Origin: Flavobacterium sp. | GTDB lineage: Bacteria; Bacteroidota; Bacteroidia; Flavobacteriales; Flavobacteriaceae | DNA: 64,000 nt | NCBI RefSeq assembly: GCF_046153165.1 | Contig: NZ_JBJXEN010000010.1 | Span: forward strand, 5,995-69,994 | Reading direction: 5' to 3' | Shown here: positions 5,731 through 25,213 of the stretch, one piece after another | How positions within the stretch are numbered: the first letter of the stretch is position 1 | How the letters are laid out: each line of letters begins with the position of its first letter | The notes under the pieces: model-generated | Told to the model about the DNA's origin: nothing | The model's database searches: none | The model's input: only the letters and a program-made list of their open reading frames with translations | Made by a program: the position numbers and the translations under genes

Positions 5731-6096
5731 TCAGTTTTCTAAAAGCTCACTTACTTGATCTACAATTTTCTTTATAGAAAAAGGTTTTGTCATATAAGCA
5801 TCGGCACCAAGAGATAATCCTTTTTCTATATCACTTTCTTTATTTTTTGCCGAAAGAAAAATGACTTTGGTATGTTTCAGATTATCCTCTTTTTTTATTT
5901 GTTCTAAGGTAGCATAACCATCAACCATGGGCATCATAATATCCAAAATAATAACATCTGGATAATTTGTTTTTAGAATATCTAATGCTTCTTGTCCGTC
6001 GCGGGCAATAAATACTTGATAATTATTTTTTTTGAATGTATATTCAAGAGCCATTACAATATTTGGTTCGTCATCTACGATTAAAATCTTCTTCAT
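5731..6096 (-). CDS. Single-domain response regulator (REC only)
   Basis: VDDE, LDIMMP phospho-Asp and KPF; 121 aa with no output domain; overlaps kinase stop by 4 nt. Confidence 0.9.
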   Translation of the reverse strand: MKKILIVDDEPNIVMALEYTFKKNNYQVFIARDGQEALDILKTNYPDVIILDIMMPMVDGYATLEQIKKEDNLKHTKVIFLSAKNKESDIEKGLSLGADAYMTKPFSIKKIVDQVSELLEN

Positions 6097-9276: not shown

Positions 9277-10815
9277 TTAGTCGTGAAGTGTATTAATTTT
9301 TTTATCAATGTAAATCATTCCAATTATGAAACAAACTGCTGCAATTCCTATTGGATACCATAATCCTTCTAAATAAAATTCTGGGTTTCCAGCATCTTTA
9401 GCCGAAGTTACGAAATAAGTAGATATCGCAGGAAGTAATCCTCCAAAAATACCGTTTCCAACGTGATATGGTAATGACATTGATGTATATCTAATTTTTA
9501 CAGGGAACATTTCGACAAGGAAAGCTGCAATTGGACCATAGACCATCGTTACAAAAATTACTTGAATAAAGACTAGAAAAATAAGCATCCATCGATCACT
9601 GCTATTAATAGTTTTAGTCACTTTAGTATCTACTTTGTCTTTTCCTTTATCATCTACTAATACTTTTCCGTTTTCTATGTGAATGGTTTTTATCTCTTCT
9701 ACGGTAGTTCCATCTACATATGCTTTTGTAGTAGTATAAATAGAATCTAATTTAGTAGCATCAATTTCTTTGATAGATGGAACCACTTTAGTTTGTTCTA
9801 CAATTTCAGTTTTTAAAGCTAAATCTGTAGTTTGATACATGGCTTTGTATATTGGTCTGTATAGCAAAATTGCTAATAACATTCCTCCCATCATAATGTA
9901 TTTTCTACCTATTTTATCACTCAACCAACCAAACACGATAAAGAATGGTGTTCCAAAAATTAAAGCTATTCCTAATGACATATCTACTTGAGATGAATCG
10001 ACACCCATTACGGTTTTCATAAAGTTCATCGCATAAAATTGCCCTGTATACCACACAACTCCTTGTCCCATTGTGGCACCAAACAATGCAAGCAAAACAA
10101 ATTTTAAATTGTATTTGTTTCCAAAACTTTCTTTTAGAGGATTTGTAGATGTTTTTCCTTCTGATTTTGCTTTTGCAAATACAGGAGATTCATCCATATT
10201 TTTACGAATCATATACGATACAAATACCATGATGATTGAAACCCAAAACGGTACTCTCCATCCCCATTCGTCAAAAGCTTCTTTAGATAAAACGCTTTTT
10301 GTTATAAGAATTACCATCAATGAAATAAACAAACCAACTGTTGCTGTAGTTTGAATCCATGAAGTCCAATAACCTTTTTGACCAGCTGGTGCATGTTCTG
10401 CTACATAAGTTGCAGCTCCACCATATTCGCCACCAAGCGCTAAACCTTGTAACAAACGCAATACTAAAACTAATAATGGAGCAAAAAAACCAATGCTTTC
10501 ATAACTCGGAATACAACCTATTAGGAAAGTGGCTCCACCCATTAATAATAATGTAACCATAAATGTATATTTTCTTCCTATCAAATCGCCTAAACGACCG
10601 AAGAATAATGCTCCAAAAGGGCGAACTACAAAACCTGCTGCAAATGTTGCTAATGTAGATAAGAAGGCAGCTGTAGGATTATCTGAAGGGAAAAATTTAG
10701 TAGAAATTACCACTGCTAAACTTCCAAAGATGTAGAAGTCATACCATTCTATCATTGTTCCCATTGAGGAGGCTGAAATTACTTTCCAGATTCCTTTTGT
10801 TGATTTTTCTTTCAT
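9277..10815 (-). CDS. MFS transporter, metabolite:H+ symporter (MHS) family
   Basis: GTMIEWYDF, RPFGALFFGRLGDLIGRK and QGLALGGEYGGA motifs. Confidence 0.9.
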   Translation of the reverse strand: MKEKSTKGIWKVISASSMGTMIEWYDFYIFGSLAVVISTKFFPSDNPTAAFLSTLATFAAGFVVRPFGALFFGRLGDLIGRKYTFMVTLLLMGGATFLIGCIPSYESIGFFAPLLVLVLRLLQGLALGGEYGGAATYVAEHAPAGQKGYWTSWIQTTATVGLFISLMVILITKSVLSKEAFDEWGWRVPFWVSIIMVFVSYMIRKNMDESPVFAKAKSEGKTSTNPLKESFGNKYNLKFVLLALFGATMGQGVVWYTGQFYAMNFMKTVMGVDSSQVDMSLGIALIFGTPFFIVFGWLSDKIGRKYIMMGGMLLAILLYRPIYKAMYQTTDLALKTEIVEQTKVVPSIKEIDATKLDSIYTTTKAYVDGTTVEEIKTIHIENGKVLVDDKGKDKVDTKVTKTINSSDRWMLIFLVFIQVIFVTMVYGPIAAFLVEMFPVKIRYTSMSLPYHVGNGIFGGLLPAISTYFVTSAKDAGNPEFYLEGLWYPIGIAAVCFIIGMIYIDKKINTLHD

Positions 10816-10842
10816 ATAGTATACTTTTTAAATTTATTTTTA

Positions 10843-12150
10843 TTAAAATGAATAAGCGCAAGAAACCATTACTCTAACATTAGATACATCTCTAGAGTTT
10901 AAATCGGCTGATCCGTTTCCATTAGCATTTAAATCACCCCAAGTCGCTGCTGTATATTCAACTTCTGGAGTTACTCTGAATTTATTTTGTTTAAAATCTA
11001 CTCTTCCTGCAACTCTCATTACCTGATCAACAACTCTAGTTCCAGAAACACCTCTCATATAATATTTTACTGTTTCACCTGGATTTAAAGAACGACCTGT
11101 TCCATCATTAGTTGTCATACCAAAAAACAAACCTGGAGCAATTTTTTTACCATTACTCGCTACATCTAGCCAAAAAGCAGTTGCTTTTGATGCTTCGTAT
11201 TTTTCAACTTCATTTACTGCAGTATAACCAGCAAAACCTCCTAACATGACTTGATTTTGCATGTTCAAACCTGAAATTCCGTAAGCTTTAACAGAAAATT
11301 TATCATTAGAATACTTAACATATCCCACAACAGACGAACTATTTACTTTTTCAGTCGTTAAAACTTTTGTCCCTGATGGAGCTAAAGTAAAATCGGTTAA
11401 GGGTTGGATAGATTTAAATTCCGCTCCCATACCTGCAATCCAGTTTTTATTTTTATATTGAAATTGTCCGTGTAAAGTAGGCATCACAGAATTAATTGTA
11501 CCTGAGTTCTGGGTTCCAATTGTTGCTGTTGTTGCAGCAAACTCTCTCTCTTTATATACTGTTAAAGCAAAAGATAATTCTTTAGTGAAGTTTTGTTTTA
11601 ATTTTATTTGAGTTGCCCAACCAAATGGGTTGAACATAATTCCTGTGTTAAAATTTGCTACACCTGGAAAAACCTCTGGAATAAATGTTGGATACCAAGT
11701 TTGCCCGACTGTCAATGAAGTTTTTGACCAATCCATGTTAACATAAGCATGTCTTAATCTAAAAAGCCCAATTGAAGAACCTTCTACATTTCCGAAGAAA
11801 TCGCCTTCTAATGTCCCGCTCATTTTTGCACCCCATACATTTGGTCCTTTTACTTTAGTTCCAAGTCTTGAGATTACTGATAAATAGTTTGATGAAGGAA
11901 CATCATTAAAATCATCGCCAGAAACTGGAGAATCTAATGGATAAAGATTTAATTCACCCTCTCTTACTTGTGCAGATTTTCTAGTATCATAAAAGAAGTC
12001 AGTTCTAATAAAACCATAAAGGCTAACATCCCATTCTTTTTCTACAGGTACAGGAGTAGGAACAATAGGAATTGTTTCTGTGGCTGGTGTTTGTGAAAAT
12101 CCTTTTATGGAAGCCATTCCTAATAAAAGAATTAAATAATGTTTTTTCAT
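10843..12150 (-). CDS. Outer-membrane beta-barrel porin, DcaP-like
   Basis: Signal peptide, YGFIRTD, SRLG, EGDFFG, FRLRHAY and GQTW motifs; C-terminal aromatic YSF. Confidence 0.75.
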   Translation of the reverse strand: MKKHYLILLLGMASIKGFSQTPATETIPIVPTPVPVEKEWDVSLYGFIRTDFFYDTRKSAQVREGELNLYPLDSPVSGDDFNDVPSSNYLSVISRLGTKVKGPNVWGAKMSGTLEGDFFGNVEGSSIGLFRLRHAYVNMDWSKTSLTVGQTWYPTFIPEVFPGVANFNTGIMFNPFGWATQIKLKQNFTKELSFALTVYKEREFAATTATIGTQNSGTINSVMPTLHGQFQYKNKNWIAGMGAEFKSIQPLTDFTLAPSGTKVLTTEKVNSSSVVGYVKYSNDKFSVKAYGISGLNMQNQVMLGGFAGYTAVNEVEKYEASKATAFWLDVASNGKKIAPGLFFGMTTNDGTGRSLNPGETVKYYMRGVSGTRVVDQVMRVAGRVDFKQNKFRVTPEVEYTAATWGDLNANGNGSADLNSRDVSNVRVMVSCAYSF

Positions 12151-12254
12151 AATAGATACAATTTGGTTATTAGTTGGTTGGTTTTAACACTGCCAAATTG
12201 TAACTTTTTATCAAGAAAAAAAATAATGATATATATATATGTAAACTAATATAG

Positions 12255-12674
12255 CTAATCTTTAAAACGTTCCCATTTTATAAGCATAAATTTATCCCCA
12301 AGTTCGGTTATAACCATACCTGCTCCAGATAATAAATTTTTATTTTTAACATATTCTACAAGCTCTAAATGATTAAATATCTTATAAGTAGGATGGTAAT
12401 CGCCATGAGATGGCTTCTTTATTTTATATTCTTTTACCCAATTACTTACTGTAACATGAGAAACCCCAATAATACGTTCAATTTCTCGATAACTAAGCCC
12501 TTCTAGGTAGAGCTGCATAGCTTTGATAACATAATAATTATCTATCTTTTTACCTAGTTTATTGACTGTAAAATAATAATTACATTTTTTACATAAATAC
12601 CTTTGTTTATTATTGATCACACCACTTTTTACAATAGTATTATTTTGACATTTTGGGCAAGCTAAAATCTCCAT
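12255..12674 (-). CDS. IS1 InsA-like zinc-ribbon + HTH DNA-binding protein, no transposase catalytic domain
   Basis: CPKC-x19-CKKC ribbon with KSG..KQRYLC, HTH GLSYREIERIIGVSHVTVSNWV, unrelated ~55-aa C-terminus. Confidence 0.75.
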   Translation of the reverse strand: MEILACPKCQNNTIVKSGVINNKQRYLCKKCNYYFTVNKLGKKIDNYYVIKAMQLYLEGLSYREIERIIGVSHVTVSNWVKEYKIKKPSHGDYHPTYKIFNHLELVEYVKNKNLLSGAGMVITELGDKFMLIKWERFKD

Positions 12675-12933: not shown

Positions 12934-13539
12934 ATGGAATTTGATCCAGAAAATCTTGAACAATCAGCTATTTATAAATTACTTACAGGAGCTGTCATTC
13001 CACGGCCTATTGGTTGGATATCTAGTGTAAGTGAGGATGGAATAAACAACCTTGCTCCTTTTTCTTTTTTTAATGCGATTGGAGACGATCCTCCTCATGT
13101 CATGTTTTCAACAGTCAGAGGAAATAATACGAATAAGGATACCTTAAATAACGTATTATCTACTAAGCAGTTTGTAGTTAATATGGTTACAGAAGAGTTA
13201 GTTGAACAAATGAATATGACCTCACAATCAATTCCATCTGATGAAAGTGAATTTGAACTAGCTGGTCTTACTCCTATTGCTTCCGTAAAAGTAAAACCAA
13301 TGCGTGTTAAAGAAAGTCCTATTACTTTCGAATGTGAATTAGTTCACCACTACTCATTAGAAAATCACAAATTTGGCGGAGCTACGATGATTGTTGGTAA
13401 AATAATAATGATGCACATTGATGAAAGTGTCTTACTAGATAATTACAAAATAAATATGAATACTTACAAACCTGTAGCTCGTTTAGCAGGTTCAAATTAT
13501 AGCAAAATAGGGGAAATATTTTCAATAAAAAGAAGTTAG
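12934..13539 (+). CDS. Flavin reductase-like FMN-binding split-barrel protein (COG1853/DIM6-NTAB type)
   Basis: VIPRPIGWISS, NLAPFSFFN and KDTLNN motifs. Confidence 0.85.
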   Translation: MEFDPENLEQSAIYKLLTGAVIPRPIGWISSVSEDGINNLAPFSFFNAIGDDPPHVMFSTVRGNNTNKDTLNNVLSTKQFVVNMVTEELVEQMNMTSQSIPSDESEFELAGLTPIASVKVKPMRVKESPITFECELVHHYSLENHKFGGATMIVGKIIMMHIDESVLLDNYKINMNTYKPVARLAGSNYSKIGEIFSIKRS

Positions 13540-13707: not shown

Positions 13708-15993
13708 ATGAAAATAGCAGTAATTGGTGGTGGTCCAGGAGGACTTTATTTTTCGATATTAACTAAAAAAGCGATGCCTCATTGGCAAATAGACATTTAT
13801 GAACGTAATAAAGCGGACGATAGTTTTGGATTTGGCGTTGTGTTTTCCGATGAGACATTAGGAGAATTCTTAAAACGCGATATGCAATCGTATGAATTAA
13901 TTCGTAGTAAATTTGCCTATTGGGACGATATTGTTGTAGCACGTGATGGAGAATCTGTAAGTATTGCTGGTAATGGTTTTTGCGGTTGCTCTAGAAAAAC
14001 GCTTCTACAGTTGCTGCAACAAAGATGTCTTGAAGAAGGTATAAACCTTCATTTTGAACAAAATGTCGATGATTTATCACAATTCGAAGATGCCGATATT
14101 ATTGTGGCTTGCGACGGAATTGCAAGTGGAATTCGTACTAAATATGAAAAAGATTTTGGTACAAAAATAGAAATGAAAAAAAATCGTTTCGTTTGGCTAG
14201 GATCTACAAAACCTTTAGACGCTTTTACTTATTTCTTCAGAACTACAGAATTCGGAACTATTGTAGCACATTCCTATCAATATGAAGAAGGAATGAGTAC
14301 TTGGATTTTTGAATGTTCCGATGAAACTTGGCAAAAATTTAATTTTGAAGTCACCAATGAAGAAGATACTATTGCTAAAATTTCAGAAATCTTTAAAGAT
14401 GAATTAGATGGTCATCCACTAATTTCAAATAAATCACATTGGCGTCAATTTCCACATGTAACCAATGAGAATTGGTATCATAAAAATATCGTTTTGTTAG
14501 GTGATGCCAAAGCCACAGCGCATTATTCCATCGGTTCTGGAACAAAATTAGCTATGGATTGCGCCATCGGACTTTCTGATGCGGTAATTGCAAATCCAAA
14601 TGATGTGCAAACTGCATTTCAACAATATGATAAAACTAGGAGAAATACAGTCGAAATGATTCAATATGCGGCATTAGTGTCGCTAGACTGGTTCGAAAAT
14701 ATGGATAGAAATAACCAACATCCTTTTCAACAATTTGCTTTCGGATGCATGACACGTTCTAAAAAAGTAACTTTCGAAAATTTGTGTTTACGAGATAAAT
14801 CATTTACAGACAAAGTTTTAGAAGAATTTAATAACAATAATCATGTTGATGACAAAATCCAACCAGCAGCATTTTCAAAATTTAAACTTCGTGATTTAGA
14901 CTTACAAAACCGAATTGCAATGTCTTCTATGGGACAATATTCTGCTGAAAACGGATTGGTAAACGACTGGCATTTCCAACATTACACTTCAAGAGCAATT
15001 GGTGGTTTAGGTTTAATTTTAACAGAAATGACAGCCATTTCTGAAACAGGAAGAATTACAGAAGGTTGTGCCGGAATTTATACTGATAATCAAATTAAAG
15101 AATGGAAACGAATTAACAATTTCATTCATCAACATACACAAACAAAAATCGGAATTCAATTAGGACATTCTGGACGAAAAGGCGCTACAAAAAAACCTTG
15201 GGAAGATACTTTTACTGGAACAAGTTGGGGATTACTTTCCGCTTCTGCTATTCCTTTTAACGAAAGTGCACTAACTCCAAAAGCGATGACTTTAGCCGAT
15301 ATGGATTTGATAATTTCTCAATTCGTACAAGCAACAAAAAATGCTAATGATGCTAATTTTGATATGATAGAATTACAAGCACATCACGGATTTTTATTAG
15401 CTTCTTTCTTATCTCCATTAACAAATAACAGAACTGATGAATTCGGTGGAAGTAACGAAAACCGATTAAAATTTCCATTACGCGTTTTTACAGAAATGCG
15501 AAACGCTTTCCCAAAAGAAAAACCAATGTCTGTACGAATTTCAGCAACAGATTGGGCAGAAAACGGAATTTCATCAGCAGATGTAATTGCAATTTCTGAA
15601 GCTTTTAAATCAGCTGGTGCTGATATTATAAATGTTTCTACTGGAAATACAGTGGCCAATCAAAAAACTCAAACAGGAAGAATGTGGCAAACACCTTTTT
15701 CAGATGCGGTGAGAAATACAGTTCATATTCCAACCATAACGGCTGGTTATATTCAAGATATTGATCAAATAAATACGATAATTCTAAACGGAAGAGCAGA
15801 TTTAGTAGCTTTAGGAAGACCTTTATTATTAGATGCGAATTTTGTAAGAAATGCTCAAGCTTACGAACAATTTCAACCAACTGATATTCCAAATCAATAC
15901 AAAATGGGAATTTCACATTTGTATCCGTTAAAAGCCTCTGAAAGAAAACAGGTTGAAGGAATGAAAAAGGCATTGAAACCAAAGAGTAATTAG
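13708..15993 (+). CDS. Bifunctional aroyl-CoA 5-hydroxylase / OYE-like oxidoreductase (2-aminobenzoyl-CoA monooxygenase/reductase, salicylyl-CoA 5-hydroxylase family)
   Basis: N-terminal GGGPGG, FGFGVVFSD, GDAKATAHYSIGSGTKLA; C-terminal OYE barrel (QLGHSGRK, SPLTNNRTDEFGGS); 761 aa. Confidence 0.9.
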   Translation: MKIAVIGGGPGGLYFSILTKKAMPHWQIDIYERNKADDSFGFGVVFSDETLGEFLKRDMQSYELIRSKFAYWDDIVVARDGESVSIAGNGFCGCSRKTLLQLLQQRCLEEGINLHFEQNVDDLSQFEDADIIVACDGIASGIRTKYEKDFGTKIEMKKNRFVWLGSTKPLDAFTYFFRTTEFGTIVAHSYQYEEGMSTWIFECSDETWQKFNFEVTNEEDTIAKISEIFKDELDGHPLISNKSHWRQFPHVTNENWYHKNIVLLGDAKATAHYSIGSGTKLAMDCAIGLSDAVIANPNDVQTAFQQYDKTRRNTVEMIQYAALVSLDWFENMDRNNQHPFQQFAFGCMTRSKKVTFENLCLRDKSFTDKVLEEFNNNNHVDDKIQPAAFSKFKLRDLDLQNRIAMSSMGQYSAENGLVNDWHFQHYTSRAIGGLGLILTEMTAISETGRITEGCAGIYTDNQIKEWKRINNFIHQHTQTKIGIQLGHSGRKGATKKPWEDTFTGTSWGLLSASAIPFNESALTPKAMTLADMDLIISQFVQATKNANDANFDMIELQAHHGFLLASFLSPLTNNRTDEFGGSNENRLKFPLRVFTEMRNAFPKEKPMSVRISATDWAENGISSADVIAISEAFKSAGADIINVSTGNTVANQKTQTGRMWQTPFSDAVRNTVHIPTITAGYIQDIDQINTIILNGRADLVALGRPLLLDANFVRNAQAYEQFQPTDIPNQYKMGISHLYPLKASERKQVEGMKKALKPKSN

Positions 15994-16008: not shown

Positions 16009-17598
16009 ATGAAACATTACGAAGATAATTTCGCTCACAATAGTTTACCAAGTTTGGACTTACAACCAGAATATAAATTCTTGGGTTTACCACAATTCAA
16101 TCGTCCAGAAATGCTTAATTGTGTGGAAAAATTACTCGACAATCATATAGCTGAAGGTCGTGGAAACAACATTTGCATCAGAACTTTCGAGGAAACTTGG
16201 ACATATCAGGATTTATACGAAAAAGCCAATCAAATAGCACATGTTTTAGTCGAAGATTTAGGTTTAAAATCAGGAAATCGTGTATTGATTCGTTCGGCTA
16301 ATAATCCAATGATGGTCGCTTGCTGGTTTGCAGTGTTAAAAGCTGGCGGAATTGTTGTCGCAACTATGCCTTTGTTACGTTCCAAAGAATTAACTACAAT
16401 TATAGATTGCGCCGAAATTTCTCATGCTTTTTGCGATAGCAATTTATCTGATGAAATGAACTTAGTAAAGTCTAGTTTTCTAAAAAAGGTTTGTTATTAT
16501 AAAAATTCCGATTTAGAGAAGTTGATGGAAACTAAACCAAAAACATTTCATAATTTTCATACCAAAGCAGATTCAGTTGCCCTAATTGGTTTCACTTCAG
16601 GGACTACAGGTCTGCCTAAAATGACAGCACATTATCACAAAGATATTCTTAATATTTGTGAAGCTTTCCCACAATATTCATTACAACCAACTGAAATCGA
16701 TGTTTTTACAGGAAGTCCACCTCTAGGTTTTACGTTCGGATTAGGCGGATTGGTTTTATTTCCCATGTATTTTGGCGCTTCCACATTTTTAATCGAAAAA
16801 CCAAGTCCAGATTTACTTTTAAAAGTCATTGAAGAATACAAAATAACGATTTGTTTTACAGCTCCAACAGCTTGGAGAATTATCACTACAAAAGTGAATA
16901 AATTTAATGTTTCCAGCTTACGCAAATGTATATCTGCTGGAGAAACATTACCCTTAAAAGTTTGGCAAGATTGGTATAATGCTACAGGATTAAAAATCAT
17001 AGACGGAATCGGTGCTACCGAAATGCTACATATTTTTATTTCATCTAACGAAGAAAATATGAAACCAGGATCAACTGGTATAGCAATTACTGGTTATGAA
17101 GCTAAAATTATTGATATAAATGGTGATGAAGTTTCAAGAAATGAACCAGGAAGATTAGCCGTTCGTGGAATTACTGGTTGTAAATACTTAAACCGAGAAG
17201 ACAAACAACGAGAATATGTAGAAAACGGTTGGAACATCACTGGAGATATTTTCCGTCAAGATGAAGAAGGTTATTTTTATTTTGTGGCTCGCGGTGACGA
17301 TATGATTATTTCTTCGGGGTATAATATTGCTGCAATTGAAGTAGAAAGTGTACTTTTAACCCACGAAGATATTCTAGAATGTGCAGTAGTAGGATTACCA
17401 GATGAAGAACGAGGAATGCTAGTTTGTGCACACATTGTTTTAAAAGAAAATGACAAAGCAAACGATGAATTAACTAAAACTATTCAACAATGGTTCAAAG
17501 AAGTAGCTGCTCCATATAAATATCCAAGAGTAATTAATTTTGTAGAAGAATTGCCAAAAACTGAAACTGGAAAAATACAACGATTTAAATTAAAATAA
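16009..17598 (+). CDS. Aromatic acid--CoA ligase, 2-aminobenzoate-CoA ligase (AbmG)-type
   Basis: FTSGTTGLPK, SPPLGFTFGLG, DGIGATEMLHIFIS and LPKTETGKIQRF motifs. Confidence 0.85.
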   Translation: MKHYEDNFAHNSLPSLDLQPEYKFLGLPQFNRPEMLNCVEKLLDNHIAEGRGNNICIRTFEETWTYQDLYEKANQIAHVLVEDLGLKSGNRVLIRSANNPMMVACWFAVLKAGGIVVATMPLLRSKELTTIIDCAEISHAFCDSNLSDEMNLVKSSFLKKVCYYKNSDLEKLMETKPKTFHNFHTKADSVALIGFTSGTTGLPKMTAHYHKDILNICEAFPQYSLQPTEIDVFTGSPPLGFTFGLGGLVLFPMYFGASTFLIEKPSPDLLLKVIEEYKITICFTAPTAWRIITTKVNKFNVSSLRKCISAGETLPLKVWQDWYNATGLKIIDGIGATEMLHIFISSNEENMKPGSTGIAITGYEAKIIDINGDEVSRNEPGRLAVRGITGCKYLNREDKQREYVENGWNITGDIFRQDEEGYFYFVARGDDMIISSGYNIAAIEVESVLLTHEDILECAVVGLPDEERGMLVCAHIVLKENDKANDELTKTIQQWFKEVAAPYKYPRVINFVEELPKTETGKIQRFKLK

Positions 17599-17604
17599 AC
17601 AATA

Positions 17605-19185
17605 ATGAGAAAAGCATTTTTAGTCATAAGTATCACCATTTTATCATTAACAGGAATATTAATTTACGTAAATTGGAAGTTTAGTTTTCTATTATTGATA
17701 TTTATTCCATTAATTATAATGGGATTATATGATATGTTTCAGTCTAAAATTACTATTCGCAGAAACTTCCCACTTTTAGGAAGAATGCGTTATTTATTAC
17801 AATCGATTGGTCCTGAAATGCGTCAATATTTCATTGAAACCGATTTAGATGGAAAACCATTTAATCGTTTACAACGAGATTTAGTATACCACCGAAGTAA
17901 AAAAGAAACTGACTCTATGCCTTTCGGGACACAACTTGATGTGTATCAAGAAGGTTACGAATGGATTAATCATAGTATTCGTTCTATACCTTTCTCGCAA
18001 GTAAACGAAAACCCGAGAGTTCATATTGGATCATCTCAATGTACAAAACCTTATGATGCTAGTTTGTTTAATATCAGCGCGATGAGTTTCGGTTCATTAA
18101 GTAAAAATGCCATTTTAGCGTTAAATAATGGCGCAAAACAAGGAGGGTTTTATCATAATACAGGCGAAGGCGGATTATCTCCTTATCATTTACAAGGTGG
18201 TGATGTAGTTTGGAATATTGGAACTGGTTACTTTAGTTGTCGTACACCTGATGGCAAATTTAACTATGATGAATATATAAAAAGAGCCACTTTAGATAAT
18301 GTAAAAATGATCGAAATAAAATTCTCGCAAGGTGCAAAACCTGGTCATGGCGGAATTTTACCCAAAGAAAAAGTAACTGACGAAATTGCTGCTATACGTT
18401 TAGTTTCTAAAGGTCAGGATATTTTATCACCACCTAGTCATTCTGCTTTTACAACACCTTTAGAATTAATGGATTTTGTAAAATTACTACGAAAAGGTTC
18501 TGGCGGAAAACCAATTGGAATGAAAATTTGCATTGGCAATAAATCAGAATTTTTGTCTATTTGTAAAGCAATGGTCGAAACCCAAACCTATCTCGATTTT
18601 ATCACTGTAGATGGTGGCGAAGGTGGAACTGGAGCAGCACCACAAGAATATTCAGACCACGTAGGAATGCCTTTACGTGATGCCGTAGCCTTTGTTTATG
18701 ATGCTCTAAACGGGTACGGAATAAAAGACCAAATCAAAATTATTTGTAGCGGAAAAGTTATTACTGGATTTGACATCATCAGAAATCTTTCTCTTGGTGC
18801 CGATTTATGTAATTCGGCGCGTGGAATGATGTTTGCACTCGGCTGTATTCAAGCACTAGAATGTCACGCAAATACTTGTCCGACAGGTGTTGCTACACAA
18901 AATCCAGAATTAATGAAAGGATTAGTTCCAGAAGAGAAAAGCGTTCGAGTAGCAAGATTTCAGCACGAAACCGTAAAAAGCGCGATGGATCTAATGGCAT
19001 CAGCCGGAATAGATCATCCAGACAAAGTCGACCGATCAGTTGTCAGCACAAGAGTTCATCTTGGTAAAACACAAACTTTTGAAGAAACATATCCAGAAAT
19101 AAAAACAGGCTCATTATTAGACGGAAGTACCGTTCCCAATGAACTTTTTAAAGTTTGGAAAAAAGCAAGTGTAGATAAATTTTAG
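17605..19185 (+). CDS. Stand-alone FMN-binding glutamate synthase family protein (GltB2/YerD-like) with N-terminal TM
   Basis: SAMSFGSLS, NTGEGG, EIKFSQGAKPGHGG and CIQALECHANTCPTGV [3Fe-4S] motif. Confidence 0.9.
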   Translation: MRKAFLVISITILSLTGILIYVNWKFSFLLLIFIPLIIMGLYDMFQSKITIRRNFPLLGRMRYLLQSIGPEMRQYFIETDLDGKPFNRLQRDLVYHRSKKETDSMPFGTQLDVYQEGYEWINHSIRSIPFSQVNENPRVHIGSSQCTKPYDASLFNISAMSFGSLSKNAILALNNGAKQGGFYHNTGEGGLSPYHLQGGDVVWNIGTGYFSCRTPDGKFNYDEYIKRATLDNVKMIEIKFSQGAKPGHGGILPKEKVTDEIAAIRLVSKGQDILSPPSHSAFTTPLELMDFVKLLRKGSGGKPIGMKICIGNKSEFLSICKAMVETQTYLDFITVDGGEGGTGAAPQEYSDHVGMPLRDAVAFVYDALNGYGIKDQIKIICSGKVITGFDIIRNLSLGADLCNSARGMMFALGCIQALECHANTCPTGVATQNPELMKGLVPEEKSVRVARFQHETVKSAMDLMASAGIDHPDKVDRSVVSTRVHLGKTQTFEETYPEIKTGSLLDGSTVPNELFKVWKKASVDKF

Positions 19186-19337: not shown

Positions 19338-19766
19338 ATGAACCAACCGTTTATAAAACAAGAAAAAATCCGTTTCAAACACATCGACTACGCAGGAATA
19401 GTTTTCTATCCGCGTTTTCTAGAAATGCTAAATGACTTAGTAGAAGATTGGTTCGAAGAAGCATTAGACAGACCATTTTCTAAAATGCACGAAACCAATG
19501 GAATTCCAACGGTCGATTTGAAAGTACAATTTAAAAAAGCGGCCCGATTAGGAGAAATTCTAACCAAAAAATTATGGGTAAAAAATCTTGGTAGCGCATC
19601 AATTTTATGTGGATTTTCATTTGAAGATGAACAAGGAAAAACTTGTTTAGAAGGTGAGGTTACTTTGGTAAATATTGTTTTTCAGGAAAATAAAAACGAT
19701 ATCAAAGCAGAACCTTTTAACGAGGAAATGAAAGAAAAAATTTCAAATTTCATTCAAAATGATTGA
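19338..19766 (+). CDS. Acyl/aroyl-CoA thioesterase (4-HBT hotdog family)
   Basis: HIDYAGIVFYPRF catalytic Asp motif; 142 aa. Confidence 0.88.
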   Translation: MNQPFIKQEKIRFKHIDYAGIVFYPRFLEMLNDLVEDWFEEALDRPFSKMHETNGIPTVDLKVQFKKAARLGEILTKKLWVKNLGSASILCGFSFEDEQGKTCLEGEVTLVNIVFQENKNDIKAEPFNEEMKEKISNFIQND

Positions 19767-20397
19767 ATTTAAAACATTTATGAGTTTAACTGATTCTTCT
19801 GTTGCCGAAGAAATGATTCAGATTTTGAAAGTAAATAAAATTGCTTTCAAAATACAGGATACGTCAAAAGATTTTGATGCTACTTTTGCTAATAATACAG
19901 CACAGGATTCTATACTTATTATGCTTAATCCCAATGATTTTGATAAAGCTTCTAGAATACTGGATGAGAACATGCAGTTTAATATTAATGAAATTGATTC
20001 TCTTCATCCACTTTTTTCTTTCACTATAGATGAACTAAAAGATGTTGTGAAAAATTATGATGAATGGCATCCTTTAGATGTTAAATTGGCTAAGCATCTT
20101 TTAAAAAATGAGAGTATAACCGTTGAAGATTCCGAAATTATTGACAAACAACTTCAAAAAGAAATTAAATCCCAACAACCTGAAAAATCAAATTCATTAA
20201 CCCTTATTATGGGTTACGGTTTTTGTATAATGGGTGGCTTAGCGGGAATTGGAATTGCAATATTCTTATTAACTGGAAAAAGAACTATGACAGATGGTTC
20301 AAAAAAATATATTTACTCAAAATCTGATAGAGTTCACGGTGTATATATGCTTATTGCTGGCACTGCTGTTTTTCTTTCATTATTTATTTTAAATTAA
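19759..20397 (+). CDS. Hypothetical membrane protein (DUF2007-like N-terminus, two C-terminal TMs)
   Basis: AEEMIQILKVNKI..DTS pattern, DEWHPLD, two hydrophobic helices; overlaps thioesterase stop. Confidence 0.55.
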   Translation: MIEFKTFMSLTDSSVAEEMIQILKVNKIAFKIQDTSKDFDATFANNTAQDSILIMLNPNDFDKASRILDENMQFNINEIDSLHPLFSFTIDELKDVVKNYDEWHPLDVKLAKHLLKNESITVEDSEIIDKQLQKEIKSQQPEKSNSLTLIMGYGFCIMGGLAGIGIAIFLLTGKRTMTDGSKKYIYSKSDRVHGVYMLIAGTAVFLSLFILN

Positions 20398-20404
20398 ATC
20401 GACA

Positions 20405-21385
20405 ATGGAATTCAAAAAATTTAAAGCAGCAACCGTTCAAACTTCACCTGTTTTTCTAAACGTTGAAAAAACAGTTGAAAAAGCGATTACATTTATCAAA
20501 GAAGCCAGTCAAAATGGAGCGCAATTAATTGCTTTTCCAGAAGTATTTGTGGCAGGTTATCCGTATTGGAATTGGATTATAACACCAGTTCAAGGTAGCA
20601 AATGGTACGAAAAACTATACAAATGTTCTGTCAAAACAGACGATGAAGCCATGCAACCTTTGTTTCAAGCAGCAAAAGACAACAACATTCACATTGTAAT
20701 CGGAATTAACGAACGTGGTGATTCTTATGGTGAAATTTACAATACTAATTTAATCATTGATAATCACGGAAACTTAATCGGAAAACACAGAAAGTTAGTA
20801 CCCACTTGGGCAGAAAAACTTACTTGGACTTCTGGAGATGGTTCTTCATTAAAAGTATATAATACAGAAATTGGTCCCATTGGAACTTTGGCTTGTGGTG
20901 AAAACACGAATACTTTAGCGCGTTTCACATTACTATCTCAAGGGGAATTAATTCACATTGCGAATTATATTTCGTTGCCAGTGGCACCACCAGATTATAA
21001 TATGGCGGAAGCGATAAAAATTCGTGCAGCGGCACATTCTTTCGAAGGGAAATTGTTTACGATTGTTTCGTGTTCAACGATTTCTAAAGAAATTATGGAA
21101 GCGTTAAAAGATGATGTTCCGAATGTGGAAGAATTATTAACTCGTAAGAACTCCGCTTTTTCAGGCTTTATTGGTCCAAATGGCGCTGTAATCGGCGAGC
21201 CATTAATTGACGACGAAGGAATGGTGTATGCCGATATCGATTTAGAAAAATGCATTCAACCAAAACAAATGCACGACATTCTCGGACATTATAATAGATT
21301 TGATATCTTTGATTTGCGTGTAAACATTGCTCCAACTCGAAAAATCACGTTTATAGACAATCACGAGGAATTTAATAAAAGATAG
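20405..21385 (+). CDS. Carbon-nitrogen hydrolase (nitrilase/amidase superfamily)
   Basis: Glu-Lys-Cys triad in FPE, HRKLVPT and LACGEN. Confidence 0.9.
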   Translation: MEFKKFKAATVQTSPVFLNVEKTVEKAITFIKEASQNGAQLIAFPEVFVAGYPYWNWIITPVQGSKWYEKLYKCSVKTDDEAMQPLFQAAKDNNIHIVIGINERGDSYGEIYNTNLIIDNHGNLIGKHRKLVPTWAEKLTWTSGDGSSLKVYNTEIGPIGTLACGENTNTLARFTLLSQGELIHIANYISLPVAPPDYNMAEAIKIRAAAHSFEGKLFTIVSCSTISKEIMEALKDDVPNVEELLTRKNSAFSGFIGPNGAVIGEPLIDDEGMVYADIDLEKCIQPKQMHDILGHYNRFDIFDLRVNIAPTRKITFIDNHEEFNKR

Positions 21386-21397
21386 CATTAAAATACT

Positions 21398-22516
21398 ATG
21401 GAAGATAAATTTTCAGATGACCAAATTGGTCGTGCAAGAGTACAAGATTCGCCAGAATTAGTAGCGTATTACAAAGAGTTAGAAACGCTTGGCGCTGGTG
21501 CATTATGGACAGTGGCTAACGACATTGAACCTTGGGAACCAAGATCATCATCTGTTCCAATGCTTTGGAAATATGACGATTTACGTGAATTAGTTTTAAA
21601 ATCATCGGAATTAGTTACACCAGAACAGGCAGGAAGACGTGTAGTTTATTTAGTAAACGATAAACGTAAAGATGTTTCTGCAGCTGTGGGTTGGTTGTAT
21701 ACTGGAATACAAGTGACTCGACCTGGAGAAAGTACTTCGGCGCATCGTCATCGTGCTTCTGCTTTACGCTTTATCATGGAAGGCGAACGCGGATATACTG
21801 TTGTAGATGGTAATAAAATCATGCTAGAAGTAAACGATTTTGTAATTACACCTAATTCGACTTGGCACGAACACGGAGTTGAACAAGGTGGAAAAACATG
21901 CATTTGGCAAGATGGTTTAGATATTCCTTTAGTAAATGCGCTTGAAGCCAATGATTATGCCGTTTATGATGGCAAACAACCTCTAACAGTTCCTGTTAAT
22001 TATTCTCCAATATTATATGGGGGAGCTGGTTTGATCCCAGCCGATAAAACTTGGGACAAACCCTATTCACCATTATTTAAATATTCTTGGAAGAACGTAT
22101 ATCCAGCACTTTTAGAAGCTCAAAAAGTATCAGAAGTGAATCCTTTTGATGGAATTTTTATGCAATATTCCAATCCATTAACTGGCGGCCACGTAATGCA
22201 AACTATGGGAGCATCGATGCAATTATTGCCAGCTGGTTTCAAAGGAAAAGCACACAAACATACAGGTTCAATCGTATATCAATGTGCTAAAGGAAAAGGT
22301 TATTCTATCATTAACGGAAAAAGATACGATTGGAAAGAACGTGATATTTTCTGTGTTCCATCTTGGGCTTGGCACGAACATCACAATTTATCTGAAACGG
22401 AAGATGCTTGTTTGTTTTCGTTTAATGATTTACCTGTAATTCAATCTTTAGGATTATATCAAGAAAAAATATATGAGGAAAATAAAGGATATCAAGAAGT
22501 TACGATAATACTATAA
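21398..22516 (+). CDS. Gentisate 1,2-dioxygenase-like bicupin ring-cleaving dioxygenase
   Basis: LYTGIQ..PGE..AHRHRASALRF, WHEHG, DGLDIPLV; second cupin with HKHT/WAWHEH. Confidence 0.85.
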   Translation: MEDKFSDDQIGRARVQDSPELVAYYKELETLGAGALWTVANDIEPWEPRSSSVPMLWKYDDLRELVLKSSELVTPEQAGRRVVYLVNDKRKDVSAAVGWLYTGIQVTRPGESTSAHRHRASALRFIMEGERGYTVVDGNKIMLEVNDFVITPNSTWHEHGVEQGGKTCIWQDGLDIPLVNALEANDYAVYDGKQPLTVPVNYSPILYGGAGLIPADKTWDKPYSPLFKYSWKNVYPALLEAQKVSEVNPFDGIFMQYSNPLTGGHVMQTMGASMQLLPAGFKGKAHKHTGSIVYQCAKGKGYSIINGKRYDWKERDIFCVPSWAWHEHHNLSETEDACLFSFNDLPVIQSLGLYQEKIYEENKGYQEVTIIL

Positions 22517-22519
22517 AAA

Positions 22520-23041
22520 ATGTTTAAAAATACAATATATCTATATTTAATTCTATTAACTATAATTTCTTGCAATTCTAAACATGAGAATATGGAACAT
22601 ATGAAGCCATTAACAGTTAATAAAGATTCTATAAAAGTTCCACCTTTTAAAATTCAGTTAAAGTTTTCGGACAAAGCAAATAGAACTTTAAAAAAGGAAA
22701 ATGAAACTATTTTAGTTGATGTTGAATTTATAGGAACTCCTGAATCAAAAATTACTGAAAAATATAAATATGAATATTACGATGAAAACGGACAAGTTAC
22801 AATTGGGAAAAAAATAATTGAAGTAACCAAACAGAGTGAAATAAAATTTGATAATTGTAAAGTATCCAAAGGCTTATTAGAATTGCTCAAAAACAAAACA
22901 TATAATGTTAGAATTACTATTGTAAGTGGCAGAAAGACATCTGAGGATAATTTGCTATACTGTGATTTTATAGAGCAAAATATTGAGAAAATTAGAAATA
23001 AAACTATAAAGATAAACGGCAAGTTAATTGAGGAAGAATAA
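22520..23041 (+). CDS. Hypothetical lipoprotein
   Basis: Lipobox-like IISC after a hydrophobic leader; very AT-rich. Confidence 0.6.
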   Translation: MFKNTIYLYLILLTIISCNSKHENMEHMKPLTVNKDSIKVPPFKIQLKFSDKANRTLKKENETILVDVEFIGTPESKITEKYKYEYYDENGQVTIGKKIIEVTKQSEIKFDNCKVSKGLLELLKNKTYNVRITIVSGRKTSEDNLLYCDFIEQNIEKIRNKTIKINGKLIEEE

Positions 23042-23243: not shown

Positions 23244-24152
23244 ATGAAACTACTTACCTACAAAACATCAGAAACAGAGCCAAGATTAGGATTTATTCAT
23301 AACAATCAAGTTATTGATATGGAAGATTTTGGAGATATTTCTAATTTCCCATTACCAAATGATATGTTGGATTTAATTGATATGGGATTTGAAATTATTG
23401 CAGAAATAAATGATATGATTTCAGAAACAAGTCAAAAACAAATCGATGAAATTAGTTATGCTTTTGATGAAATTACCATCCTTGCTCCTATCGAAAAACC
23501 AAGAAAAAACATCATCGGAATTGGTTTAAATTACACCGAACACGTTGCCGAAAGCGCTAGAACATTAGATACAACAGGAAAATTACCTACAAAACCAATT
23601 ATTTTTTCTAAGCCTACTACAACTGTAACTGGAACAAATACTAACATTATTAAAAACACTAAATTGACCGAACAATTAGATTGGGAAGTCGAATTGGCTG
23701 TTGTTATTGGTAAAAAAGGAAAATATGTAGCTAAAGAAGACGCATTAGATTATGTGTTTGGTTACACGGTAATTAACGATATTTCTGCACGTGATTGTCG
23801 TCGAGAAGGACAATGGATTGTATCAAAAGGGCAAGATACTTTTGCGCCAATGGGTCCAATTATAGTAACCAAAGACGAAATCGAGAATCCACACAACTTG
23901 AATTTATCATTAAAAGTAAATGGTGTTGAAAAACAAAATTCGAATACAAAATTCTTATTGTTCAATATCAATGATTTGATTGAAGATTTAAGTATCGTTT
24001 TCACTTTAGAACCAGGTGATATTATTGCTACAGGAACACCATCAGGCGTTGGAGCAGGAAGAAGCCCACAAGAATTTATGAATGATGGTGATGTGGTTGA
24101 AGCCACTGTAGAAGGAATTGGAACAATTGTGAATACAGTTAAGGAGATTTAG
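23244..24152 (+). CDS. Fumarylacetoacetate hydrolase family protein
   Basis: GIGLNYTEH, LDWEVEL, NDISARD, KGQDTFAPMGP and GDIIATGTPSGVG motifs. Confidence 0.92.
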   Translation: MKLLTYKTSETEPRLGFIHNNQVIDMEDFGDISNFPLPNDMLDLIDMGFEIIAEINDMISETSQKQIDEISYAFDEITILAPIEKPRKNIIGIGLNYTEHVAESARTLDTTGKLPTKPIIFSKPTTTVTGTNTNIIKNTKLTEQLDWEVELAVVIGKKGKYVAKEDALDYVFGYTVINDISARDCRREGQWIVSKGQDTFAPMGPIIVTKDEIENPHNLNLSLKVNGVEKQNSNTKFLLFNINDLIEDLSIVFTLEPGDIIATGTPSGVGAGRSPQEFMNDGDVVEATVEGIGTIVNTVKEI

Positions 24153-24463: not shown

Positions 24464-25213
24464 ATGAAAAAATACAGAATAGGACAAATAGTTCCATCAT
24501 CAAACGTAACGATGGAAACCGAAATACCGGCTATCTTTCGCTCACGTGAAACCATTTTACCAGAACGATTTACTTTTCATTCAAGCAGAATGAGAATGAA
24601 AAAAGTGACCAAAGAAGAGCTCGAAGCTATGGATGCCATGAGTCTTAAATGTGCTCAGGAATTATCTGATGCACATGTGGATGTTATGGGTTATGCTTGT
24701 TTGGTTGCCATTATGAGTATGGGTCGCGGTTATCATTGCGTTTCGGAAATAAATTTACATCAAGAAACTGTAGCGAACGACTTCCCTACTCCAATTGTGA
24801 CTTCTGCTGGAGCATTAATCAATGGATTAAAAGTTTTAGGGGCAAAAAAAGTAGCTATTATTACACCGTATATGCGTCCGTTAACAAATATGGTTGTCGA
24901 TTATATAGAACATCAAGGATTTGAAGTTGTTGATTCAATTGCTTTGGAAATTCCAGATAATTTAGAAGTCGCCGCTCAAGATCCAATGAATTTATTAGAA
25001 ATTTACAAACGTTTAAACTTGGAAGGTGTTGATGTTTTAGTTGCTTCAGCTTGTGTACAAATGCCATCATTAGAAGCGATTGATTTAATTCAAAAGGAAA
25101 TTGGAATTCCAGTTACTTCTGCTGCAGTTTGTACTACGTATGAAATGATGAAAAAATTAGGTATTGAAGCTAAATCTGCTATTGGTGGCGAATTATTAAG
25201 CGGAAAATATTAA
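24464..25213 (+). CDS. maiA: Maleate cis-trans isomerase (Asp/Glu racemase superfamily)
   Basis: GQIVPSSNVTMETE, YACLVAIM and SACVQMP (two catalytic Cys). Confidence 0.9.
   Translation: MKKYRIGQIVPSSNVTMETEIPAIFRSRETILPERFTFHSSRMRMKKVTKEELEAMDAMSLKCAQELSDAHVDVMGYACLVAIMSMGRGYHCVSEINLHQETVANDFPTPIVTSAGALINGLKVLGAKKVAIITPYMRPLTNMVVDYIEHQGFEVVDSIALEIPDNLEVAAQDPMNLLEIYKRLNLEGVDVLVASACVQMPSLEAIDLIQKEIGIPVTSAAVCTTYEMMKKLGIEAKSAIGGELLSGKY

Follow-up and report, generated by a model that had tools for sequence, protein, structure and literature searches.

What has become of the second activity of a two-domain flavoenzyme is the question raised by a stretch of Flavobacterium sp. DNA, 64,000 nucleotides from contig NZ_JBJXEN010000010.1 with a G+C content of 31%, which as a whole is called the window below. 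The open reading frame (ORF) at 13708..15993 encodes a fusion of a flavin adenine dinucleotide (FAD) monooxygenase with an old yellow enzyme (OYE) domain, as in AbmA, the 2-aminobenzoyl-coenzyme A (CoA) monooxygenase/reductase (ACMR) of Azoarcus evansii, and in SdgC. A preliminary description of the locus had noted Gln and Phe in place of a catalytic His and Tyr of the OYE half, and had proposed that these changes disable ene-reduction and leave a pure 5-hydroxylase, in keeping with the thioesterase and ring-cleavage genes downstream. We call fusions Gln-type or His-type after this first His, residue 557 in the window protein. At a probability of roughly 60%, the ORF belongs to a Gln-type class of AbmA/SdgC fusions that would act as aryl-CoA 5-hydroxylases, likely on anthraniloyl-CoA, and feed a thioesterase and gentisate-type ring cleavage.

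The OYE active site of the fusion protein

The protein has the two domains that define the AbmA/ACMR-SdgC fusions, a group-A FAD monooxygenase and an Oxidored_FMN domain, and its features are as follows.

13708..15993, + strand: fusion flavoprotein of the AbmA/SdgC kind, 761 amino acids (aa), with PF01494 and PF00724 in one ORF
13708..14832, + strand: N-terminal FAD monooxygenase half, residues 1-375 (PF01494; VioD model, 1.4e-69; closest solved relative VioD, 3c4a and 8gqr)
14869..15942, + strand: C-terminal OYE (Oxidored_FMN) half, residues 388-745 (PF00724, 1.8e-66)
14932..14934, + strand: Gly409, replacing the Cys of class III OYEs by alignment (SPMCQY to SSMGQY)
15034..15036, + strand: Ala443; Ala in 15/15 Gln-type sequences, Cys in 18/23 His-type
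15370..15399, + strand: OYE active-site motif E555-L-Q557-A-H559-H560-G-F562-L-L, by codon reading in frame with the ORF (canonical E-L-H-x-A-H-G-Y-L-L)
15646..15648, + strand: Asn647; Gln in 18/23 His-type sequences, Glu, Asn, Leu or Ser in Gln-type
15823..15825, + strand: Leu706; His in 23/23 His-type sequences, variable in Gln-type, the second-best discriminating position

Positions 15370-15399 read gaa tta caa gca cat cac gga ttt tta tta in frame, and the residues Q557, H560 and F562 are numbered exactly as first reported; the sequence given for the motif was likewise right, and only its span, 15367-15399, started one codon early, at ata (I554). In a phmmer search of the OYE half against solved structures, the best relatives were the class III enzymes, the OYE of Thermus scotoductus (TsOYE, 3hf3, E 1.8e-79) and YqjM (1z41, E 1.7e-62), and the alignment places the window segment IELQAHHGFLLASFLSPL above IELHMAHGYLLSSFLSPL. 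By this alignment the first His of the pair is replaced by Gln557, the second is retained as H560, and the proton-donor Tyr is replaced by Phe562. Gln484, His560, Arg610 and G-R704 are shared with the class III enzymes, whereas of their markers Cys26 corresponds to G409 (a replacement that the preliminary description had not recorded), the His164/His167 pair to Q557/H560 and Tyr169 to F562; the window domain, moreover, is fused to a monooxygenase. AbmA and its His-type relatives have the same VioD-like FAD monooxygenase plus OYE architecture and an adjacent aryl-CoA ligase, and plasmid-borne His-type members are 42-46% identical to the window protein, but the OYE site of the latter reads Q-x-H-H-G-F and not H-x-A-H-G-Y, and A443, N647 and L706 differ as well. 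The H-x-x-H-G-Y set is present in 23/23 of the His-type sequences compared.

The unusual motif is not chance or sequencing noise, because ELQ[ASV]HHGF is invariant in 81 related loci, namely 80/80 Flavobacterium loci (species or metagenome-assembled genomes whose proteins are 81-95% identical) and one relative that is 54% identical. Nor does the OYE half look like a dead relic, since the median pairwise ratio of nonsynonymous to synonymous substitution rates (dN/dS) is ~0.11 for this half and 0.065 for the monooxygenase half; by this measure the OYE half is slightly less constrained, yet clearly under purifying selection. The Protein Data Bank (PDB) matches included no structure of any such fusion enzyme. 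An AlphaFold2 model had a mean predicted local distance difference test (pLDDT) score of 75, with residues 646-761 below 50, where the alignment is thin; it is too unreliable beyond residue 645, and therefore no argument is drawn here from side-chain positions.

Residue 557 across the family

The genes downstream of the fusion that matter for this comparison are listed here.

16009..17598, + strand: aryl-CoA ligase of the benzoate-CoA ligase family, by family search
19338..19766, + strand: 4HBT-fold acyl-CoA thioesterase
20405..21385, + strand: nitrilase-superfamily C-N hydrolase
21398..22516, + strand: bicupin of the gentisate 1,2-dioxygenase (GDO) type
23244..24152, + strand: fumarylacetoacetate hydrolase (FAH)-family hydrolase, candidate maleylpyruvate or maleamoylpyruvate hydrolase
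24464..25213, + strand: Amdase / Asp-Glu-racemase family protein, candidate maleate isomerase

The ring-cleavage module is defined as the nitrilase-family C-N hydrolase, the bicupin, the FAH hydrolase and the maleate-isomerase-like (racemase) gene. Beyond the close Flavobacterium relatives, gene contexts were taken from plasmids, contig look-ups and one metagenome scan; this sampling is non-random, and evidence is counted by lineage and not by locus. When homologues were clustered at 50% identity, H-x-x-H-G-Y was intact in most of the cluster representatives and altered in a minority. Every module-linked fusion has Gln, or once Asn, at position 557 (the window family, L088, L089, L094, L100/102, L106, L135/136/140/148, L142, L149, L158, L163, L169, L172, L183 and L184). 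The 54% identical relative L088 (QAHHGF), a Streptomyces protein (L089, QYGHGH) and a Rhodospirillaceae protein (L094, NAGHGT) all have thioesterase, C-N hydrolase, bicupin, FAH and racemase genes as neighbors. Metagenome loci picked by the C-N hydrolase alone held a fusion gene in 13 cases, and 13/13 had Gln557 (QGHF, QHHF, QGHH, QGHY and QHNY), while plasmid clusters found by way of the bicupin had QAGHGY in Burkholderia sp. SFA1 (L183) and QAGHGF in Ralstonia solanacearum SL3103 (L184).

The other side of the comparison is equally consistent. Of the fusions with H-x-x-H-G-Y, from Alpha- and Betaproteobacteria, Actinomycetota and one haloarchaeon, 0/15 had the bicupin/maleate-isomerase module; their neighbors are short-chain dehydrogenase/reductase (SDR), MarR, enoyl-CoA hydratase, acyl-CoA dehydrogenase and RidA genes or, in Actinomycetota, RidA, FAH, small cupin and TesB-like genes. 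Conversely, no enoyl-CoA hydratase, acyl-CoA dehydrogenase, SDR or RidA gene was present in the window cluster or in any Gln-type locus examined. Hence the association suggested at the outset, of His-to-Gln with cupin and maleate-isomerase genes and of H/Y with beta-oxidation-type neighborhoods, holds up, with the amendment that the Actinomycetota His-types sit in RidA-type clusters; the opposite arrangement, Q/F proteins common in beta-oxidation clusters, was looked for and not seen (0/15). The proposed match to the downstream genes needs a similar amendment, in that the ring-cleavage module tracks Gln557 and the thioesterase is not diagnostic. As a marker of a hydroxylase-only class the thioesterase was rejected, homologues 35-41% identical being present in His-type clusters as well.

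Some neighborhoods fall outside this contrast. The actinobacterial His-types L083, L090, L092 and L093, on plasmids including pAL1 and pRLCBG43, occur with RidA, an FAH-family hydrolase, a small monocupin and a TesB-like thioesterase, and adjoin genes for the catabolism of quinaldine, alkylquinolone or tryptophan; their downstream pathway is of a third kind, with no cluster of enoyl-CoA hydratase and acyl-CoA dehydrogenase genes. L087 (a Haladaptatus salinisoli plasmid) and L095 are deep-branching fusions without the N-terminal OYE motif SPMxQY, and L095 (HAGHGG) has Gly for the Tyr. Both lie in beta-oxidation clusters, directly beside a luciferase-like monooxygenase (LLM)-class flavin oxidoreductase that may have assumed the reductase role. 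Stand-alone OYEs with degenerate motifs (P0274 and, from Leptospira, P0271) had no informative gene context.

In a scan of 745 aligned positions, in which 15 module-linked fusions were compared with 23 others, position 557 ranked first (1/745), with Gln in 14 and Asn in 1 against His in 23/23. The next discriminators were 706, 408 and 562, and because the top-ranked positions are all in the OYE half, the functional difference between the two classes would sit in the reductase domain, as first supposed. His-type sequences have Met at 408 (23/23), Ala at 559 (22/23, against Gly or His in Gln-type) and Tyr at 562 (23/23); at this last position the Gln-types have Phe 9 times, Tyr 3, His 2 and Thr 1. 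Tyr-to-Phe is thus not the consistent marker it had seemed. In the sequences compared, the consistent switch is His to Gln, with the Tyr apparently just released from constraint, and the traits that set the Gln-type class apart are the replacement of the first His by Gln, of the neighboring Ala by Gly or His and of Cys443 by Ala, the replacement of Gln647 and His706, and a Tyr that seems dispensable (Phe in the window protein).

The same switch may have been made more than once. In neighbor-joining (NJ) trees the Gln-types were monophyletic in 0/100 bootstraps, whether the full length, each half alone, or a Dayhoff-6 recoding with the diagnostic columns removed was used. The actinobacterial Gln-type pair groups with actinobacterial His-types at 90-97 (full length), and at 23-41 with the N-domain and a larger data set; for the beta-proteobacterial Gln-type trio, support for grouping with beta-proteobacterial His-types is 100 in the first data set and falls to 63 in the larger one; L149 and L100 stand beside alpha-proteobacterial His-types, and the Bacteroidota clade beside the His-type P0001. 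Likewise, L142 is 68% identical in the N-domain and 62% in the OYE domain to the His-type L082, compared with 54% and 47% to the Gln-type L149. The ratio of OYE to N-domain identity is 0.84-0.96 for most within-clade Gln-His pairs, as against 0.96-1.29 for His-His pairs. Since the Gln-types are non-monophyletic and pair with His-types of the same phylum, repeated change is suggested, with the same substitutions arising in parallel in five or six lineages. The simpler notion that all Gln-type enzymes form one ancient orthologous group was rejected on the bootstrap result. A single replicon may carry both types: the R. solanacearum SL3103 megaplasmid CP022791.1 has two fusion genes, of which the L184 copy is Gln-type beside the ring-cleavage module and the other may be His-type, as is the gene at the usual R. 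solanacearum position (L082).

The substrate and the lower pathway

If the Gln-type fusion delivers an aromatic product to the module, the identity of the ring can be approached from the genes that flank it. The resemblance of the ligase, the presence of the C-N hydrolase and the cyclase and oxidoreductase neighbors together argue that the aromatic contains nitrogen and derives from tryptophan or indole, anthraniloyl-CoA being the simplest candidate. Over its whole length the window ligase shares 48% identity with the one encoded beside the fusion gene on pAL1, which we take to be ARUE_113p00220. ARUE_113p00220 is one of two ligases shown to use anthranilate (PMC3534580). The C-N hydrolase has nitrilases as its best PDB matches (~1e-61), is 58-66% identical across phyla, and accompanies the bicupin wherever contigs reach far enough. 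Moreover, PF04199 cyclase genes (the isatin hydrolase / kynurenine formamidase family) and IorAB-like 2-oxoacid oxidoreductases are found in several Gln-type clusters.

The competing possibility is that the ORF encodes an SdgC orthologue that converts salicylyl-CoA to gentisyl-CoA in a salicylate-to-gentisate cluster, with the C-N hydrolase serving some other step, for example on a nitrile or amide precursor. This would leave the hydroxylase-only reading intact and change the substrate alone. SdgC of Streptomyces sp. WA46 reportedly gives aromatic gentisyl-CoA, and its gene is said to adjoin those of a ligase and a GDO; in the window, too, an aryl-CoA ligase and a GDO-type bicupin are clustered. 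The best curated NCBIfam model for the window protein is NF006101, 'bifunctional salicylyl-CoA 5-hydroxylase/oxidoreductase' (956.9 bits, aligned over residues 1-747), but this score is under the equivalog cut-off of 1078 bits. For the bicupin, the top-scoring model is that of gentisate 1,2-dioxygenase, and identity to GDOsp (PDB 3BU7) is ~60% (tblastn). From the opposite perspective, a nitrilase-family hydrolase stands with the bicupin in every lineage and would have no role in a nitrogen-free pathway such as that of SdgC, whose cluster is not known to include a C-N hydrolase; the cyclase genes of the isatin hydrolase / kynurenine formamidase family are nearby; and the ligase resembles the presumed anthranilate-CoA ligase of pAL1. 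On this balance we regard a salicylyl-CoA enzyme as unlikely, and return to anthraniloyl-CoA as the probable substrate.

Two rings are then candidates for cleavage by the bicupin. One is gentisate, in which case deamination would come first, as the classical scheme has it; the other is 5-hydroxyanthranilate, whose cleavage would give an amide for the C-N hydrolase to act on. An analogy, and only that, is offered by the maleamate branch of nicotinate degradation, where the amidase NicF and the maleate isomerase NicE act downstream of ring cleavage, so that amide hydrolysis is likewise joined to maleate-to-fumarate isomerization; NicF is isochorismatase-like, however, in contrast to the nitrilase-family enzyme here, and the ring and the dioxygenase differ too. 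A crystallized relative of the bicupin deserves mention in this regard. GDOsp is encoded at 9989-11113 of a Ruegeria (Silicibacter) pomeroyi DSS-3 megaplasmid locus (L182), inside the same module of C-N hydrolase, bicupin, FAH and Asp-Glu-racemase genes, with an IorAB-like oxidoreductase, an aminotransferase, an aldehyde dehydrogenase and a thioesterase as neighbors and no fusion hydroxylase. Its physiological substrate may deserve re-examination. PMC11264262 was dropped as proof of gentisate cleavage by GDOsp, the enzyme there being from Corynebacterium glutamicum.

Modules of this kind are not confined to the neighborhood of a fusion. In L107, L110, L111, L120, L123, L125, L127, L150 and others, no fusion is present within 10 kb of the C-N hydrolase/bicupin/FAH module. 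The module is joined by IorA-like genes in 24 loci, and L123-type loci have a Rieske oxygenase alpha subunit along with two CoA ligases and an SDR. The module would thus be a general lower pathway with several feeders, because many copies carry Rieske oxygenase or IorAB genes instead of the fusion.

The remaining genes of the window cluster, and those divergent from it, are as follows.

9277-10815, - strand: major facilitator superfamily (MFS) transporter, divergent
10843-12150, - strand: DcaP-like porin, divergent
12255-12674, - strand: helix-turn-helix (HTH) regulator, divergent
12934..13539, + strand: PF01613 flavin reductase, directly 5′ of the fusion gene (Pfam; 80/80 Flavobacterium loci)
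17605..19185, + strand: stand-alone glutamate-synthase FMN-domain-like protein, accessory (Pfam; 41/80 related loci)
19759..20397, + strand: 212-aa ORF, accessory, no Pfam or NCBIfam match (3/80 relatives)
22520..23041, + strand: 173-aa ORF, strain-specific, no Pfam or NCBIfam match (0/80 relatives)

All genes from the flavin reductase through the racemase gene run in one direction (+). The set of flavin reductase, fusion, ligase, thioesterase, C-N hydrolase, bicupin, FAH and racemase genes is complete, with all of the five lower genes inside the flank, in 47/56 Flavobacterium loci, the 56 being those of the 80 Flavobacterium orthologues with at least 9.5 kb of downstream sequence, and the divergent transporter, porin and regulator (9277..12674) co-occur with the cluster in many Flavobacterium loci. 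The role of the flavin reductase is puzzling, because a group-A monooxygenase should need none; a PF01613 gene is also found in L088, L094, L169 and L184. The glutamate-synthase-like gene lies between the ligase and the thioesterase and is absent from the clusters outside Flavobacterium. A scan of the cluster for sigma-70 promoters and terminators did no better than shuffles, and the fusion gene was present in DNA metagenome runs only and in no RNA run. Farther upstream, tandem acetyl-CoA-synthetase-like genes of 635 aa each (1869-3776 and 3795-5702, - strand) adjoin a response regulator (5731-6096) and a 901-aa histidine kinase (6093-8798).

Possible loss, or remodeling, of the reductase half

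As judged from sequence and gene context, the pathway would run as follows. The VioD-like FAD half would hydroxylate an ortho-substituted benzoyl-CoA, most likely 2-aminobenzoyl-CoA from the adjacent ligase, at C5. Gln557, together with A443, N647 and L706, would weaken the binding or activation of the dienone intermediate, so that the remodeled OYE half would no longer trap it by hydride and proton transfer and the product would re-aromatize to the 5-hydroxy-aryl-CoA. The 4HBT thioesterase would then release the acid and the GDO-type bicupin open the ring; nitrogen removal by the nitrilase-family hydrolase would precede cleavage, with gentisate as the result, or follow it, by hydrolysis of a maleamoyl amide; and the FAH hydrolase and maleate isomerase would yield pyruvate and fumarate. 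The OYE half, still selected, would keep a residual or altered role, either structural or in a Tyr-independent reduction, for example of a quinone or quinone-imine. A hydroxylase-only member of the family is known in principle, SdgC reportedly being a related fusion whose product is an aromatic 5-hydroxy-aryl-CoA. Nor would a large change be required: a modest weakening of the reductive step should suffice to switch the product, since a His-type enzyme already releases 5-hydroxyanthraniloyl-CoA when reduced nicotinamide adenine dinucleotide (NADH) is limiting (PMC3534580).

Several observations weigh against this scheme. Purifying selection on the OYE half, at a dN/dS of 0.11, means that the domain does something. 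Q484, R610 and R704, which we take to be FMN (flavin mononucleotide) contacts, equivalent to Gln102, Arg215 and the G-R of class III OYEs, are present in the window protein along with Y411 and H560, and these residues are retained in 13-14/15 Gln-type sequences, the Arg610 equivalent missing in L094 and L169. Tyr562 is retained in three Gln-type lineages (L149, L169 and L183), others having His or Thr. Phe562 alone is no proof of a dead reductase, because the Y169F variant of YqjM still transfers hydride, with >99% conversion, and its enolate protonation is suppressed but not abolished, some reduction product being formed (PMC6033016). Given the behavior of this variant and the Tyr of those three lineages, sequence cannot establish that reduction is lost. 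Farther from the active site, the many C-N hydrolase modules with no nearby fusion enzyme mean that this hydroxylase is not the only partner of the module; the ~60% identity of the bicupin to GDOsp, named as a gentisate dioxygenase, suits a salicylate/gentisate pathway no less than an anthranilate one; the trees are NJ only, a weak method, and what looks like parallel change could instead reflect gene conversion between paralogues or compositional effects; and the literature examined yielded no assay of a Gln-type enzyme.

The most direct alternative built on these points is that the OYE half is a working ene-reductase, in which Gln557 and His560 polarize the carbonyl as the His/Asn pair of OYE1 does, water or another residue donates the proton, and the product is a non-aromatic cyclohexenone-CoA. 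The reduction product of YqjM Y169F, the conserved H560 and putative FMN contacts, the selection on the domain and the Tyr kept in some Gln-type proteins would all be expected of such an enzyme. What such an enzyme would not explain is its company: the enoyl-CoA hydratase, acyl-CoA dehydrogenase, SDR and RidA genes found with most His-types are missing from Gln-type loci, and the ring-cleaving dioxygenase requires an aromatic substrate. Moreover, the residues invariant in His-types, H557, H706, M408 and Y562, are precisely those relaxed or replaced in Gln-types. We consider a functional ene-reductase very improbable, and the loss of dienone trapping the better account. The stronger word of the preliminary description, that the reductase is disabled, nonetheless goes beyond the evidence, in view of the YqjM variant, the capacity of Gln to donate a hydrogen bond, the retained contacts and the selection; the pure 5-hydroxylase survives as the probable reading through the link of Gln557 to the module, with a remodeled OYE half under continued selection in place of a disabled one.

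A further possibility, compatible with that reading, is that the OYE half has been re-purposed: it would keep its FMN and the oxidation of NAD(P)H and act on a substrate that needs no Tyr as proton donor, or else have a purely structural role, as in a dimer. A candidate reaction is reduction of the quinone or quinone-imine of the p-aminophenol or hydroquinone product, possibly within the deamination to gentisate. OYEs reduce quinones without the Tyr, which speaks for this idea, as do the dN/dS of 0.11, the recurrence of Gln557 and Ala443 in 5-6 lineages, unlike random decay, and the flavin reductase or flavodoxin-like genes in several Gln-type clusters. The proposal is purely inferential, however, the loss of the Arg610 equivalent in two lineages sits poorly with it, and the AlphaFold model is too weak in the last third of the barrel for the site to be inspected. 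A new function for the domain thus appears somewhat unlikely, less so than a salicylyl-CoA substrate; a 5-hydroxylase with a weakened reductive step is the reading that we carry forward.

The wider significance lies in an old gap in aromatic metabolism. The route from anthranilate by way of 5-hydroxyanthranilate to gentisate was described by Cain 1968 and Claus and Kutzner 1983, and its genes are unassigned according to reviews of 2015 and 2018 (PMC4539516, PMC6221969); our literature search found no description of an anthraniloyl-CoA 5-hydroxylase, a 5-hydroxyanthranilate dioxygenase or this gene module. It is a tentative proposal, with the odds somewhat against it, that Gln-type fusions and their module are the missing genes of this classical route, and that the class arose at least 5 times from dearomatizing ACMRs by the same His-to-Gln switch. 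If true, candidate genes would be at hand for a route known physiologically since 1968, and a single residue would predict whether anthraniloyl-CoA is dearomatized or merely hydroxylated. The fusions now share one name, either 'bifunctional salicylyl-CoA 5-hydroxylase/oxidoreductase' or 'anthraniloyl-CoA monooxygenase'; should the reading hold, they would fall into two enzymes, told apart by His or Gln at the first OYE histidine, that differ in product and in downstream pathway, and genes for the breakdown of tryptophan, indole and anthranilate could be better annotated in Bacteroidota, Actinomycetota and Proteobacteria. The family would also offer a natural case, apparently a repeated one, in which a flavoenzyme with two activities has shed or re-tuned one of them.

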